Shown one piece after another: positions 142-5,539 of a DNA stretch of 5,539 nucleotides (its first letter is position 1; each line of letters begins with the position of its first letter). The notes beneath the pieces were generated by a model. That model saw only the letters and a program-made list of their open reading frames with translations, made no database searches and was not told the origin of the DNA. The position numbers and the translations under genes are program-made. This stretch comes from a virus (lineage: Duplodnaviria; Heunggongvirae; Uroviricota; Caudoviricetes): the IMG/VR virus record IMGVR_UViG_2681813263_000007. One strand, written 5' to 3'.

Positions 142-528
142 ATGTTTCTGAAACAGGATACGTTTAATTATGAAAAACAGTCCGTGGTGCTCAGTGAGCT
201 GTCCGGGCTGCAGAGAATTGAATATCTGACGTTTGTTCAGCAGCGAACGGCAAAGTTTGATGCACAGGAGGGAGAACTGCCGGAGGCTGAACGACAGATT
301 GCTTTTCTGCGTATGGGAATGGATATCAATGCCTGGCTGGTTTCCCGCTCACTGTGGAATGCTGAGCAGTCTCAGGATGTTGAGACGCTTTGCGCATCCA
401 TTATGACAACATGGTCGTATGATGCGCTGGGCGCGGGGGCGGAGAGGGTTCTGTCGCTGAGCGGTATGGGGACCATTGAGAATGCCGGGGATGATGATCA
501 TGAGGCGCTGACGCCGGAAAAGTCCTGA
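142..528 (+). CDS. G: Tail assembly chaperone, lambda gpG-like
   Basis: The protein beginning MFLKQDTFNYEKQSVVLSELSGLQRIEYL resembles lambda gpG as I recall it (MFLKTESFEH...TLSELSALQRIEHL). GGAG at 132-135 lies 6 nt before ATG 142. ATG 139 and TTG 124 are in-frame alternatives with poorer spacing. Stop is TGA 526-528. Confidence 0.88.
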   Translation: MFLKQDTFNYEKQSVVLSELSGLQRIEYLTFVQQRTAKFDAQEGELPEAERQIAFLRMGMDINAWLVSRSLWNAEQSQDVETLCASIMTTWSYDALGAGAERVLSLSGMGTIENAGDDDHEALTPEKS

Positions 529-866
529 CGCGGGAAATGCAGTTTGTCATGCGGCTTGCCCGGGAGTTCCGGCGGGCAGACTGGCGGCGGATGCTGTCGG
601 ATATGTCGGCCACTGAGCTTGGTGAGTGGGGCGATTATTTCCGGATGCAGAGCTTCAGTGATGTGTGGATGGATGCGCAGTTTGCCTCGCTGAAGGCATT
701 GATCGTGAGAATGGTGTCCGGCAGCAGCGATGCTGCGGTGGCTGATTTCAGCCTTTTACCGGAAGAGAACGGGATACCGGAGCGAACGGACGAAGAACTG
801 ATGCATCTTGGGGAAGGTATTTCCGGAGGTGTGCGTTATGGACCAGATAGCCAACCTGGTCATTGA
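142..866 (+). CDS. GT: Tail assembly chaperone G-T fusion, made by a -1 programmed ribosomal frameshift near 516-522
   Basis: The -1 frame is open from 504 (just after TGA 501-503) to TGA 864-866 and overlaps the end of G. It encodes ...REFRRADWRRMLSDMSATELGEWGDYF...GGVRYGPD, which resembles lambda gpT. The T frame has no convincing independent ribosome binding site, and in lambda T is made only as the G-T fusion. Confidence 0.75.
516..522 (+). other. Candidate -1 slippery heptamer G GAA AAG for the G-T frameshift
   Basis: Zero-frame codons are GAA (517-519) and AAG (520-522); the -1 frame codons are GGA (516-518) and AAA (519-521). The site is 2 codons before the G stop, the same relative position as lambda's G GGA AAG. 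P-site re-pairing of tRNA-Glu on GGA would need a G:U pair at the middle position. Confidence 0.55.
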
Positions 867-2716
867 TTTGGGGATTGATGCGGCAGAGTTTAAAAATGAA
901 ATTCCCCGTATCAAAAACCTTCTGAATGGTGCAGCCAGCGATGCAGAACGGTCTTCTGCCCGTATGCAGCGTTTTATGGAGCGTCAGACTCAGGCGGCCC
1001 GGCAGACAATGCAGGCGGCTTCTTCGGCTGCAACAGCAGCATCAGCCCATGCGCAGACGGNNNNNNNNNNNNNNNNNNNNNNNNNNNNNNNNNNNNNNNN
1101 NNNNNNNNNNNNNNNNNNNNNNNNNNNNNNNNNNNNNNNNCCGTCTGCGCGTGGATGCCCTGAATCAGAAAATGCTCGAGGAACAGGCGCAGGCCAGGGC
1201 ACTGGCGGAGGCGCAGGATAAAGCGGCTGCCGCCTTTTATCGCCNNNNNNNNNNNNNNNNNNNNNNNNNNNNNNNNNNNNNNNNNNNNNNNNNNNNNNNN
1301 NNNNNNNNNNNNNNNNNNNNNNNNNNNNNNNNNNNNNNNNNNNNNNNNNNTGGTCAGCAGGATTATCTGGCGCTGATTTCGGAGATCACGGCGAAAACCC
1401 GTGCCCTGACGCAGGCAGAGGAACAGGCCACCCGGCAGAAAGCGGCGTTTATCCGCCAGCTTAAAGAGCAGGCAACCCGCCAGAATCTGTCGTCTTCTGA
1501 GTTGCTTCGCGCCAGGGCGGCTCAGCTGGGGGTAAGCAGTGCTGCAGAAGTGTATATCCGCAAAATGGAGCGGGCAGGAAAAGCCACACATTCGCTGGGG
1601 CTGAAAAGTGCGGCAGCCCGGCGGGAGCTGGGGGTGTTAATCAGTCAGATGGCGCGCGGCAATTTTGGTGCGCTGAGGGGATCCGGGATAACGCTGGCTA
1701 ACCGTGCCGGATGGACAGGCGCACTGATGTCGCCGAAAGGCATGATGACTGGCGGCGTTATTGGCGGACTTGTCGCGGCGGTCCTGGGTCTGGGTAAAGC
1801 CTGGCATGACGGCCGGAAGGAGGGCGAGGAATTTAACCGTCAGCTGGCGCTGACGGGACATTATGCCGGTGTCACTGTCGGGCAGTTGTGGAAACTCAGC
1901 CGGGCCATATCCGGGAATGGTATCACGCAACATGCGGCAGCCGGTGCGCTGGCACAGGTGGTGGGCAGTGGGGCATTTCATGGAAACGATATTGGTATGG
2001 TGGCGAAAGCTGCCGCACAGATGGAGCGATCGGTTGGCCAGTCGGTCAGCGATACCATAAATCAGTTTAAGCGGCTGAAGGATGATCCTGTAAATGCCGC
2101 GAAGGCGCTGGACAATGCGCTGCATTTTTTGACTGCCACTCAGCTTGAGCAGATACGCGTCCTTGGGGAGCAGGGGCGGTCCAGTGATGCGGCCCGGATC
2201 GCCATGTCTGCGCTGGCAGAGGAAACCGGTAAACGCACATCTGATATTGATAATAATCTCAATGCGCTGGGTAGTACGCTGCAAACCTTGTCTGACTGGT
2301 GGAAGCAGTTCTGGGATGCGGCCATGAATATTGGTCGTGAAGACTCGCTGGATGCGCAGATTGATGCGTTACAGGAAAAAATTCAGCGCGCGAAAAAATA
2401 TCCGTGGACAAACGCCTCCACACAGGTGGAGTACGATCAGCAGCGTCTTAACGATCTTCAGGAGAAAAAACGCCGGAAGGATTTGCAGGATGCAAAAGCG
2501 CAGGCAGAACGGAATTACCAGGAGCAACAGAAACGCCGGAATGCTGAAAATGCCGCGCTGAACCGGATGAATGAAACGGAAGCTGCACGACATCAGCGTG
2601 AAAATGAACGTTACGAAAAAGCCATTAAGAAAAATACACGGGCAACCCGTAATGATGAGGCCACCCGGTTATTGCTGCTGCCAGACAGTCAGCAGGCATT
2701 GCCACTGAAAGGATGA
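838..2716 (+). CDS. H: Tail tape measure protein (lambda gpH-like), N-terminal and central portion; contains two N-runs and ends at a frame break
   Basis: GGAGG at 825-829 lies 8 nt before ATG 838. The N-terminus MDQIANLVIDLGIDAAEFKNE resembles lambda gpH (MAEPVGDLVVDLSLDAARFDE). The start overlaps the end of T by 29 nt. Coding runs in frame 1 up to the first N-run and in frame 2 after it (RLRVDALNQKMLEEQAQARALAEAQ..., then a long alpha-helical K/R/E/Q-rich region). The central segment ...LSDWWKQFWDAAMNIGREDSLDAQIDALQEK aligns with lambda ...FKSMWDAVLDIGRPDTAQEMLIKAEAAYKK. Frame 2 ends at TGA 2714-2716. Confidence 0.85.
1061..1140. other. Run of 80 N (unresolved or masked sequence) inside the tape measure gene
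   Basis: Directly visible. The coding frame differs on the two sides (frame 1 before, frame 2 after), so the true length is not 80. Confidence 0.95.
1245..1350. other. Run of 106 N (unresolved or masked sequence) inside the tape measure gene
   Basis: Directly visible. Frame 2 is the coding frame on both sides, whereas 106 is 1 mod 3, so the true length is probably not 106. Confidence 0.95.
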
Positions 2717-3813
2717 CTGAAGCGCATAAACAGCTTCTGGCCCTGCAGCAGCGCATCAGCGACCTGGACGGGAAAAAGCTGACGGCAGATGAAAAGAGTG
2801 TGCTGACCCGTAAGAATGAGCTGATTCAGGCGCTGACGCTGCTGGATGTGAAACAGCAGGAGCTGCAGAAACAGACAGCGCTTAACGACCTGAGAAAAAA
2901 AACGGTTCAGCTGACCAGCCAGCTGGCAGACAAAGAACGTGCACTGCGTGAGCAGCACAATCTGGATATTGCCACTGCAGGTATGGGGGATAAGCAGCGG
3001 CAGCGCTACCAGGCACAGTTGCGCATCCGGCAGGAATACCGGCAACAGTTGCAACAGCTTGAGAATGACAGTCGCCAGAAAGGCACTTACGGGACGGAGG
3101 ACTACCGGAGGGCTGAGGAGGTGCTGAAGGGGAGCCTGAAGCGACAACTGAATGAAAACAAACGCTACTGGCAGGAACTGGAAGTGGCGCAGGGCGACTG
3201 GAAAAACGGTGCCATGCGGGCGTTTCAGCATTTTACGGCGGATGCGGATAATGCGGCGGGAACGGCAGAACAGATGTTTACAGTGGCATTCAGCAGTGCC
3301 GGTAATGCACTGGCGACATTCTGTACCACCGGTAAGCTGAATTTTAAATCCTTCACCTCTTCCCTGTTGTCAGATATGGCCAGAATTATGGCACAGATGG
3401 CCATGATGCAGGCGGTAAAGGGCGTCGGTTCTTTATTCGGCTTCACGACTAATGCTGATGGCGGTGTTTACCAGTCTGCTGATTTGAGTCGCTACAGTGG
3501 CACGGTGGTTAACCGTCCGACGTTTTTTGCTTTTGCAAAAGGCGCGGGTGTGATGGGGGAAGCGGGACCTGAAGCCATTCTGCCACTGCGTCGCGGTGCT
3601 GATGGTAAGCTGGGGGGTGTGGCGGATACTGGTGGTTCAGGCATGGTGATGTTTGCCCCGCAGTACAACATTGAGATCAATAACGATGGCACGAACGGGC
3701 AGATAGGTCCGGCTGCCCTGAAGGTGGTTTATGACCTCGGGAAAAAAGCGGCCGCGGACTTTATGCAACAGCAGGCCCGTGATGGTGGCCGGTTAAGTGG
3801 AGCATACCGGTAA
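2713..3813 (+). CDS. H: Tail tape measure protein (gpH-like), C-terminal portion, in frame 1; probably the same gene as 838-2716 separated by a frame break
   Basis: ATG 2713-2715 overlaps the upstream TGA (ATGA). Frame 1 is already open from 2659. The product TEAHKQLLALQQRISDL... aligns with internal lambda gpH (DSAHAALLTLQAELRTL), and the C-terminus NNDGTNGQIGPAALKVVYDLGKKAAADFMQQQARDGGRLSGAYR matches the lambda gpH C-terminus (NNDGTNGQIGPAALKAVYDMARKGARDEIQTQMRDGG...). Stop TAA 3811-3813 overlaps the M start. Confidence 0.85.
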   Translation: MTEAHKQLLALQQRISDLDGKKLTADEKSVLTRKNELIQALTLLDVKQQELQKQTALNDLRKKTVQLTSQLADKERALREQHNLDIATAGMGDKQRQRYQAQLRIRQEYRQQLQQLENDSRQKGTYGTEDYRRAEEVLKGSLKRQLNENKRYWQELEVAQGDWKNGAMRAFQHFTADADNAAGTAEQMFTVAFSSAGNALATFCTTGKLNFKSFTSSLLSDMARIMAQMAMMQAVKGVGSLFGFTTNADGGVYQSADLSRYSGTVVNRPTFFAFAKGAGVMGEAGPEAILPLRRGADGKLGGVADTGGSGMVMFAPQYNIEINNDGTNGQIGPAALKVVYDLGKKAAADFMQQQARDGGRLSGAYR

Positions 3814-4142
3814 TGGAGACGTTTCACTGGAAAGTGCGCCCGGATATGAATGTGGTATCAGAGCCGAAAGTGGTGACAGTGAAGCTGGGCGATGGTTATG
3901 AACAGCGTCGTGCGGCGGGACTGAATAACCAGTTGTCGACTTACAGCGTGACGATACGTGTTCGTAAAGGTGAACACCCATTTTTAAAAGCCTTTCTGGA
4001 ACGGCACGGTGGCGTCCGCGCATTTCAGTGGACGCCACCTTATGACTGGAAGCCGATCAGGGTGGTTTGTCGTAAATGGTCGGCAAGCGTGGGGGCGTTG
4101 TGGGTAACCATAACGGCAGATTTTGAACAGGTCGTGGCATAG
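3813..4142 (+). CDS. M: Minor tail protein M (lambda gpM-like), 109 aa
   Basis: METFHWKVRPDMNVVSEPKVVTVKLGDGYEQR...HGGVRAFQWTPPYDWKPIRVVCRKWS...ADFEQVVA resembles lambda gpM along its length and has the same size. TAATG start/stop overlap with H; GGAG at 3799-3802 upstream. Confidence 0.92.
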   Translation: METFHWKVRPDMNVVSEPKVVTVKLGDGYEQRRAAGLNNQLSTYSVTIRVRKGEHPFLKAFLERHGGVRAFQWTPPYDWKPIRVVCRKWSASVGALWVTITADFEQVVA

Positions 4143-4151
4143 GAGGCTCTG

Positions 4152-4850
4152 ATGCAGGATATTCCACAGGAAACACATCATGAGACGACACGCCTCACTC
4201 AGTCAGCCCAGGTGGTGCTCTGGGAAATCGATCTGACAGAGGTCGGTGGAGAACGTTATTTTTTCTGTAATGAGCAGAACGAAAAAGGTGAGCCGGTTAC
4301 CTGGCAGGGGCGGCAGTATCAGGCATACCCCATTCAGGGGACGGGATTTGAACTGAACGGCAAGGGCAGTGCTGCCCGTCCGACACTGACGGTTTCTAAC
4401 CTGCACGGAATGGTCACCGGGATGGCGGAAGACCTGCAGAGTCTGGTCGGCGGAACGGTGGTCAGGCGTAAGGTTTACGCCCGTTTTCTGGATGCGGTGA
4501 ACTTCGTCAACGGAAACAGCGACGCCGATCCGGAACAGGAGGTGATCAGCCGCTGGCGCATCGAGCAGTGCAGCGAACTGAGCGCGGTCAGTGCCTCTTT
4601 TGTGCTGGCCACACCAACGGAGACGGATGGCGCGGTTTTCCCGGGGCGTATCATGCTGGCGAATACCTGTATGTGGACTTACCGTTCTGATGAGTGTGGT
4701 TACACGGGCAGGGCAGTGGCTGACGAGTTCGACAAACCAACGACGGATATCCGGAAGGACAAATGCAGCAAGTGTATGCGCGGGTGTGAGTTGCGCAACA
4801 ATACCGGTAATTTCGGCGGTTTCCTTTCCATCAATAAACTTTCTCAGTAA
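4152..4850 (+). CDS. L: Minor tail protein L (lambda gpL-like), 232 aa, with a C-terminal cysteine cluster
   Basis: Closely resembles lambda gpL as I recall it (MQDI.QET...VVLWEIDLTEVGGERYFFCNEQNEKGEPVTWQGRQYQ...NFGGFLSINKLSQ). AGGAGG at 4141-4146 lies 5 nt before ATG 4152. Stop TAA 4848-4850. Confidence 0.93.
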   Translation: MQDIPQETHHETTRLTQSAQVVLWEIDLTEVGGERYFFCNEQNEKGEPVTWQGRQYQAYPIQGTGFELNGKGSAARPTLTVSNLHGMVTGMAEDLQSLVGGTVVRRKVYARFLDAVNFVNGNSDADPEQEVISRWRIEQCSELSAVSASFVLATPTETDGAVFPGRIMLANTCMWTYRSDECGYTGRAVADEFDKPTTDIRKDKCSKCMRGCELRNNTGNFGGFLSINKLSQ

Positions 4851-4854
4851 ATCC

Positions 4855-5539
4855 ATGACACAGACAGAATCAGCGATTCTGGCGCACGCCCGGCGATGTG
4901 CTCCAGCGGAGTCGTGCGGCTTCGTGGTAAGAACGCCGGAGGGGGAAAGATATTTCCCCAGCGAGAATATCTCCGGTGAGCCGGAGGAACGGTTCCGGAT
5001 GGCTCCGGAGGACTGGCTGCGGGCACAAATGCAGGGTGAGATTGTGGCGCTGGTCCACAGTCATCCCGGTGGTCTGCCCTGGCTGAGTGAGGCTGACCGG
5101 CGGCTGCAGGTGCAGAGTGATTTGCCGTGGTGGCTGGTCTGCCGGGGGGCGATTCACAAGTTCCGCTGTGTGCCACATCTTACCGGGCGGCGCTTTGAGC
5201 ACGGGGTGACGGACTGTTACACGCTGTTCCGGGATGCTTATCATCTGGCAGGGATTGAGATGCCGGATTTTCATCGCGGGGATGACTGGTGGCGTAACGG
5301 TCAGAATCTCTATCTTGACAATATGGAGGTGACGGGTTTTTACCGTGTCGCACTGACAGAGGCACAGCCGGGCGATGTGCTGCTGTGCTGTTTTGGTTCA
5401 TCGGTGCCGAATCATGCCGCCATTTACTGCGGTGACGGCGGGCTGCTGCACCATATTCCTGAACAACTGAGCAAACGAGAGAGGTACACCGACAAATGGC
5501 AGCGACGCACACACTCCCTCTGGCGTCACCGGGCATGGC
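4855..5539 (+). CDS. K: Tail assembly protein K (lambda gpK-like), with a JAMM/MPN motif and an NlpC/P60-like region; 3' end lies outside the window
   Basis: MTQTESAILAHARRCAPAESCGFVV...EIVALVHSHPGGLPWLSEADRR...GVTDCYTLFRDAY...HAAIYCGDGGLLHHIPEQLSKRERY is near-identical to my recollection of lambda gpK. ATG 4855 lies 4 nt after the L stop. No stop codon is reached before the window ends. Confidence 0.93.
   Translation, partial: MTQTESAILAHARRCAPAESCGFVVRTPEGERYFPSENISGEPEERFRMAPEDWLRAQMQGEIVALVHSHPGGLPWLSEADRRLQVQSDLPWWLVCRGAIHKFRCVPHLTGRRFEHGVTDCYTLFRDAYHLAGIEMPDFHRGDDWWRNGQNLYLDNMEVTGFYRVALTEAQPGDVLLCCFGSSVPNHAAIYCGDGGLLHHIPEQLSKRERYTDKWQRRTHSLWRHRAW

Follow-up and report, generated by a model that had tools for sequence, protein, structure and literature searches.

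The tape measure protein of phage lambda, gpH, accounts for about 1.5 Å of tail length per residue. Strand switching between the short arms of an inverted repeat, whether by quasipalindrome template switching or by formation of a chimera, joins one arm to the reverse complement of the spacer. In draft genomes, read pairs can link contigs whose sequences do not meet, and scaffolding then leaves N gaps of unknown size (PMC5320598). Inverted repeats are in addition sites of Illumina sequence-specific errors, at which coverage is lost and short gaps arise that read pairs bridge (Nakamura et al. 2011, PMC3141275). Here we analyze a stretch of 5539 nt (the window) in which two runs of N interrupt a lambda-like tape measure gene of an E. 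coli prophage. These runs are very probably scaffolding gaps of estimated size in a short-read draft E. coli assembly, and what they hide is almost certainly ordinary tape measure codons.

The window is byte-identical to the NCBI WGS contig CXDG01000205.1 (GCA_001252135.1; record L019), with both N-runs at the same coordinates. We reached this contig through a look-up of the 366-aa C-terminal open reading frame (ORF) of the tape measure gene, which returned 24 contigs; the equivalent look-up with the X-containing 596-aa ORF found no entry on record, and a literature search found no paper naming the accession. Since the identity includes the Ns, they are part of the deposited draft E. coli assembly and not a later addition. 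The two N-runs are the only non-ACGT characters in the window. Pfam matches, all above the curated cut-offs, and the annotation of relatives identify the window as a lambdoid tail module with the gene order G-T-H-M-L-K and the following features.

1-31, no strand assigned: terminal 31 nt of IS600 (IS3 family), a multi-copy repeat inside which the contig starts; the upstream 1138 nt of record L015 are 100% identical to the IS in L021
32-83, plus strand: last 52 nt of the major tail (tube) gene V, the upstream part of which is cut off by the IS600 insertion; window position 32 is position 4233 of L001, within the tail tube CDS at 3544-4284
142-528, plus strand: tail assembly chaperone gene G (gene call; PF06894, E 2.7e-40)
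537-866, plus strand: reading frame of tail assembly protein T (PF06223; annotation of relatives)
838, plus strand: ATG start of the tape measure gene (lambda-like, gpH family; Pfam TMP_2, TMP_4 and Tape_meas_lam_C)
838-2716, plus strand: N-terminal ORF of the split tape measure gene, 1879 nt nominal and 1836 nt true (611 aa plus stop), with TMP_2 at aa 228-426
1047-1060, plus strand: left arm of an inverted repeat, CCATGCGCAGACGG; its final base adjoins N-run 1
1061-1140, no strand assigned: N-run 1, 80 N; in relatives 52 nt, TGGAAAAGAACGCACGGGCTCATGAACGCATGGCCCGTGAGGTGGAACAAAC, tape measure aa 75-92
1141-1154, plus strand: right arm of the inverted repeat, CCGTCTGCGCGTGG; its first base directly follows N-run 1
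1141-1244, plus strand: 104-nt resolved tape measure island between the gaps, 100% identical in most relatives compared and 99.0% identical (one mismatch) in L014
1245-1350, no strand assigned: N-run 2, 106 N; in relatives 91 nt, AGATTGACAGTGTGAAACAGGCCGGTGCGGGGCTTCAGGAATTACAGCGTATTCAGCAGCAGATCCGACAGGCCAGAAACAGTGGCGGGGT, tape measure aa 127-157
2594-2603, plus strand: in-frame loss of 66 nt (22 aa) by comparison with intact relatives; the junction lies between direct repeats that are short and imperfect, CAGCG(G/T)GAAA
2676-2682, plus strand: junction, within the TMP_4 domain, at which 43 nt present in intact relatives are deleted and the frame shifts
2713-3813, plus strand: C-terminal ORF of the split tape measure gene, 366 aa, with TMP_4 (partial) and Tape_meas_lam_C; its ATG overlaps the TGA of the N-terminal ORF (ATGA, 2713-2716)
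3813-4142, plus strand: minor tail protein gene M (PF05939)
4152-4850, plus strand: minor tail protein gene L (PF05100)
4855-5539, plus strand: first 228 codons of tail tip protein gene K (JAB and NlpC/P60; PF14464, PF00877), cut by the contig end

By analogy with lambda, the T frame would be expressed as a G-T fusion through -1 frameshifting. The insertion sequence at the contig start is annotated as 'IS3-like element IS600 family transposase' and occurs at up to 43 places per genome. The tape measure gene has the G/T chaperone genes on one side and M-L-K on the other, the place expected of the gpH family, and its domains score 158.9 (TMP_2), 40.4 (TMP_4) and 87.7 bits (Tape_meas_lam_C) over both ORFs. 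The length of the N-terminal ORF was taken from the gene calls in the N-free sister contigs L016, L017, L022 and L023.

A previous reading made from the letters of the window (the sequence-only reading) had placed two N-runs, of 80 and 106 nt, inside the tape measure coding sequence, and had noted that the frame changes from 1 to 2 across the first and that the nominal lengths are not the true ones. All three points hold. Both runs fall 224-513 nt into the gene (its first ~17%), upstream of TMP_2; the window is read in frame 1 before run 1 and in frame 2 after it, and run 2 has frame 2 on either side. The same reading had also concluded, from 106 being indivisible by three, that the nominal length of run 2 is wrong, which is a non sequitur, since only a change of frame across a run is diagnostic. 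By frame alone, a true length of 106 nt would be compatible with run 2, and it is from relatives that an error of 15 nt is known; being a multiple of three, this error is invisible from the reading frame.

The content of the gaps can be read in 13 close relatives whose flanks are 99.7-100% identical to the window, comprising the complete genomes CFSAN029787 and O121 201805972, seven IMG/VR contigs, other NCBI drafts and two Logan assemblies of raw runs. For run 1, the fill is one and the same stretch of 52 nt throughout the 13. Run 2 corresponds to an identical 91-nt stretch in 12 of them; L007, with 90 nt, departs from it by a 1-nt homopolymer difference. The nominal runs are accordingly 28 and 15 nt too long, a total excess of 43 nt (~14 codons, or ~1.5% of the gene). 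More distant relatives at ~90% identity (the phages mEp460 and vB_EcoS-569R4, and E. coli VG48B2) likewise have 52 and 91 nt, and the filled 441-nt region gives one colinear alignment with no indel in about 1,827 of 5,426 complete E. coli genomes. Once the gaps are filled, one frame stays open between the ATG at 838 and the TGA at 2714-2716, and its 611-aa product equals the one called for the N-free sister contigs. Translated, the fills give VEKNARAHERMAREVEQT and QIDSVKQAGAGLQELQRIQQQIRQARNSGGV, ordinary alpha-helical, coiled-coil tape measure sequence. This was one of the contents that the sequence-only reading had thought possible, and the comparison with homologous N-terminal regions that it had recommended yields uniform fills with no insertion, mobile element or extra ORF in the relatives.

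The gap sequence of the strain itself is predicted from relatives only, and the strain could in principle be truly different here, with an insertion, a substituted block, a mobile element or an extra ORF in the gaps, or with a true 80 and 106 nt. We consider this very improbable. No relative at any distance has an indel in this region, and the frame that 52 nt restores across gap 1 would be lost with a true length of 80 nt. A spacing of 80 nt between the flanks was found in no record of IMG/VR or the JGI metagenomes with a pattern that does match the window's own Ns. Each of the four gaps that can be measured in these drafts has too many Ns, the excess being 15 to 116 nt, and estimates of ~80-106 nt would, from the behavior of scaffolders (PMC5320598), leave no space for an IS or an ORF. 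The DNA of the strain in the two gaps, predicted and not read, is almost certainly the same 52 and 91 nt as in its relatives.

The sequence-only reading had also raised the possibility of deliberate masking, that is, hard masking by a database or pipeline that hides real sequence, and one of the contig collections that we searched does have stretches masked as N-runs. The window is absent from that collection, however, when the 104-nt island is used as the query, and the Ns are present in the independently fetched NCBI WGS record. Hard masking would moreover keep the length, yet 80 N stand for 52 nt and 106 N for 91 nt, and the sequence in question is openly visible, as ordinary coding sequence, in more than 1,800 public genomes. 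We put the probability of masking at practically nil.

Collapse of tandem or dispersed repeats inside the tape measure gene was a further suggestion of that reading. Tape measure genes often have internal repeats, and short direct repeats mediated deletions elsewhere in this same gene. At the gaps themselves, though, no part of the fills or of their flanks longer than 10 nt recurs in the contig, the direct repeats in 1000-1450 (8-19 nt) are at chance level, and all complete genomes show the same single-copy lengths. Fills that are single-copy and ordinary leave collapsed repeats, an insertion and an extra ORF alike unsupported, and we regard repeat collapse as an exceedingly improbable cause of the gaps.

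What we find at both runs agrees with scaffold gaps: the Ns are in the deposited record, the flanks are colinear in relatives, and the nominal length is an estimate. We infer that the Ns come from a scaffolder and that the gaps have a read-level cause. Read pairs would have linked the three resolved pieces, 1-1060, 1141-1244 and 1351-5539, and the scaffolder would have put a guessed number of Ns into the two stretches between them. Several observations show that short reads assemble poorly at this locus, among them the multi-copy IS600 in which the contig begins. The same gene carries N-runs in the sister draft L020 (CXDF01000214.1), where 328 N stand for ~278 nt and 62 N separate flanks that actually overlap. 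Four other records (L014, L015, L016 and L021) contain joins of 1-44 N to paralogous tail modules. In the L004/L016 draft, which has the same start base as the window, the equivalent contig stops at the window end, and a single N at that position joins it to a paralogous M-L-K module of 89% identity; in L014, an undeleted and a deleted copy of the gene are joined across 14 Ns. The region matches at up to 6 places per genome, and the complete genome CFSAN029787 holds three copies of it at 99% identity or more. Several near-identical prophage tail modules in one genome would aggravate the ambiguity at gap 1.

Gap 1 replaces exactly the 52-nt spacer between two 14-nt arms (1047-1060 and 1141-1154), which are reverse-complementary, perfectly so over 10 nt and at 13 of 14 positions overall. 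Besides this pair, the filled 5.46-kb contig has just one inverted repeat of 10 nt or more within 150 nt; the chance of 10 nt on either side of a gap being reverse complements is ~1e-6 per gap. As DNA, the 80-nt hairpin element folds with -32.4 kcal/mol (z -4.8). We rejected a role for the hairpin as a conserved functional structure, given that the stem changes in the ~90% relatives are not compensatory, and we took the match between its size (80 = 14 + 52 + 14) and the length of N-run 1 as coincidence. In the sister draft L020, the sequence equals the window up to base 1060, with the correct upstream context for more than 1 kb before the join; it then continues with 36 nt of the reverse-complemented spacer and ends in its own N-run. 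This inverted walk stops at 36 of the 52 bases and never reaches arm 2, and none of the graph models that we tried predicts 36 exactly. The inverted spacer keeps an open reading frame.

Together, the bracketing of gap 1 and the walk in L020 suggest that a hairpin-linked read or assembly ambiguity triggered this gap. Reads or assembly paths would support both orientations of the 52-nt spacer, Illumina sequence-specific errors would occur at the inverted repeat, or both. With both orientations present in the reads, contigs would end exactly at 1060 and 1141, which is where they do end. A hairpin artefact at 1047-1154 would appear as a minority of reads joining CCCATGCGCAGACGG to GTTTGTTCC, and reads with a reversed spacer may be strand-switch chimeras, Illumina sequence-specific errors or the product of a real inversion. 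The hairpin alone is insufficient for a gap, since L015 and L016, which have similar accession prefixes, and the two Logan assemblies cross it without trouble.

If the 52-bp spacer were really inverted, for instance by a quasipalindrome template switch, and if this strain and the CXDF strain carried the inversion in one of their prophage copies or in part of the culture, a graph with two orientations would likewise predict contig ends exactly at the inner ends of both arms. L020 does join arm 1 to the reverse-complemented spacer in the right upstream context, the inverted spacer stays open in frame, and such a change would be neutral in a prophage that is probably already defective. Strand-switch chimeric reads at inverted repeats would give the same graph, however. 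The junction of arm 1 and inverted spacer, searched as an orientation-specific pattern, is absent from IMG/VR; a query with the inverted spacer finds nothing above 84.6% identity in complete E. coli genomes; and the inverted peptide matches no protein among 5.8 billion clusters. Both spacer orientations as complete alleles with correct flanks were not found, and the inverted one is seen only in the one-sided walk of L020. A fixed inverted allele is unlikely, and to a real inversion as the cause of gap 1 we give a small chance. Were it true, it would be a natural template-switch inversion in a decaying tape measure gene, and the reason why two drafts fail at the same point.

Neither an inverted nor a direct repeat is found at the edges of gap 2, its fold is not significant (z -0.37), and its density of GGC/GCC reaches only the 72nd percentile, which is not significant either. 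An 8-nt inverted repeat near this gap was regarded as coincidence. Compared with the common class of paralogues at 93% identity, gap 2 is the most conserved stretch: its 91 nt contain 3 SNPs and the 104-nt island contains 17, which hints at a paralogue effect. Graph tangles between paralogous prophage tape measure genes might even account for both gaps alone, with the hairpin uninvolved. The multiple copies per genome, the position of contig ends and single-N joins of sister drafts at paralogue boundaries, and the conservation of gap 2 all point in that direction. The known paralogue SNP positions, though, do not predict the observed gap edges (only 1 of 4 is explained, at an assumed k = 31), and tangles explain neither why the inverted repeat brackets gap 1 to the base nor why L020 walks into the inverted spacer. 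Tangles alone are in our view an unlikely explanation, if one to be taken seriously. The reading that we prefer retains the hairpin at gap 1, within a locus where scaffolding of a short-read draft filled two gaps with Ns.

Against its intact relatives (1013 aa in CFSAN029787 and 1021 aa in mEp460), the tape measure gene has lost 66 nt in frame and 43 nt with a frameshift. The 43-nt deletion produces ORFs of 611 and 366 aa, in place of a single uninterrupted ORF, in every N-free contig of this lineage. Its junction is also present in L004, L005, L006, L010 and at least 24 contigs, including Logan and other NCBI assemblies, and its recurrence across different assemblers shows that the deletion is real. 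No complete genome carries the allele with both deletions; the O121 genome has a separate 46-nt deletion at the same direct repeats, annotated there as 'frameshifted'. In nominal coordinates, the start at 838 and the C-terminal ORF at 2713 are both in frame 1, whereas in true coordinates the two ORFs are in different frames (838-2673 and 2670-3770 in L016). The excess of Ns equals the deletion, 43 nt each, and the frameshift is therefore hidden in nominal coordinates, in which the gene can wrongly pass for intact, as if mis-sized N-runs accounted for every change of frame. The equality of the two numbers is a coincidence.

The insertion of IS600 in V and the split of the tape measure gene probably leave this prophage tail-defective. 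The sequence-only reading had called any inference of tail length provisional on account of the Ns. Caution is indeed in order, but the N error itself hardly matters: ~14 codons correspond to ~2 nm of tail at ~1.5 Å per residue, negligible beside the split by the 43-nt deletion, which, together with the 66-nt deletion, is the real problem. Estimates of tail length should use the 611-aa and 366-aa ORFs against the 1013-1021 aa of the intact gene, bearing in mind that this prophage is probably defective.

In summary, the N-runs are an assembly artefact, the sequence that they hide is predictable and ordinary, and the interpretation first given to them is partly supported. Nothing biological is hidden in the N-runs. 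The main importance of this result is one of data hygiene. The deposited Ns make gene callers shorten the tape measure gene, leaving a 383-aa call downstream that is found in no other record. A gap that falls on a hairpin spacer, and a sister draft that walks into that spacer inverted, also give a small warning about assembly errors linked to inverted repeats.

Among described systems, the Illumina errors at inverted repeats (PMC3141275) share with gap 1 an inverted repeat of more than 8 bp at the gap, a short gap bridged by read pairs, and a defect that affects some data sets but not others. Those errors are dephasing, and an arm joined to the reverse-complemented spacer, as in L020, is not in that paper. 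Such a junction would be the expected product of quasipalindrome or strand-switch chimeras, by analogy with which arm 1 of L020 can be read, and no complete inverted allele was found in IMG/VR, the complete genomes or the protein clusters. The tape measure gene resembles the lambda gpH type of mEp460 and cdtI in the order G, T, H, M, L, K, in its Pfam domains and in a DNA identity of ~90%; it differs from the intact relatives of 1013-1021 aa in being split into 611 and 366 aa by the 43-nt deletion and in lacking a further 22 aa. The closest likeness is to short-read scaffold gaps, in which, as here, the Ns belong to the contig as deposited, relatives carry the flanks in one contiguous piece, the nominal size is wrong, sister drafts have other mis-sized N-runs in the same gene, and gene callers truncate the gene. 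We see no essential difference from these gaps; the one unusual point is that the ends of gap 1 are, to the base, those of an inverted-repeat spacer.

The tape measure gene, which starts at 838, is split by two deletions, each lying between short direct repeats. With the insertion sequence end at the contig start, the features concerned are the following (window coordinates):

1-31: last 31 nt of IS600, an IS3-family element, at the contig start
2594-2603: 66-nt in-frame deletion in the tape measure gene
2676-2716: 43-nt frameshifting deletion in the tape measure gene (junction 2676-2682) and the ORF overlap (2713-2716)

Together, the deletions leave ORFs of 611 and 366 aa that overlap in ATGA. 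This double-deletion allele occurs in at least 24 draft contigs and in none of the complete E. coli genomes. In E. coli O121 201805972, the same direct repeats of the gene are the site of a distinct deletion, of 46 nt. The two N-runs within window 1061-1350 exceed the corresponding stretches in relatives by 28 and 15 nt, 43 nt in total, and the real frameshifting deletion at 2676-2682 is of just this length; therefore, in nominal coordinates (Ns counted), the start and the end of the tape measure gene both fall in frame 1. The match is a coincidence, and it masks the frameshift.

The first N-run stands in place of the spacer of a hairpin whose left arm ends at 1060. In the sister draft L020 (CXDF01000214.1), positions 1061-1096 carry the reverse complement of this spacer, GTTTGTTCCACCTCACGGGCCATGCGTTCATGAGCC, directly after window base 1060 and followed by 328 Ns. 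The stretch reflects either an assembly error tied to the inverted repeat or a real inversion that has left a trace.

The tail-gene region is present three times in E. coli CFSAN029787 (L001, L049 and NZ_CP011416.1 4055-4495; at least 99% identity). Both copies inspected, out of the three, have complete head-tail modules and intact tape measure genes (1013 aa), and differ from each other by only 5 SNPs in the first ~2.9 kb. In gene K, 8 SNPs fall within 55 nt (4902-4956) of the window when compared with sister contigs L015-L018, which are near-identical elsewhere, and the related contig L006 ends at exactly 4901, abutting the cluster. The cluster looks like a patch from a paralogue, introduced by gene conversion or chimeric assembly.

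IS600 interrupts the major tail gene V 52 nt before its end (remnant at 32-83). Sister contig L015 runs on into IS600, and the related contig L021 carries the same element in gene M.

Whereas lambda has the canonical slippery heptamer GGGAAAG at the G/T overlap, the window (511-540) lacks it and reads CCGGAAAAGTCC instead, so that GAAAAG or A-AAG would be the candidate site left for any putative −1 shift into the frame of T.
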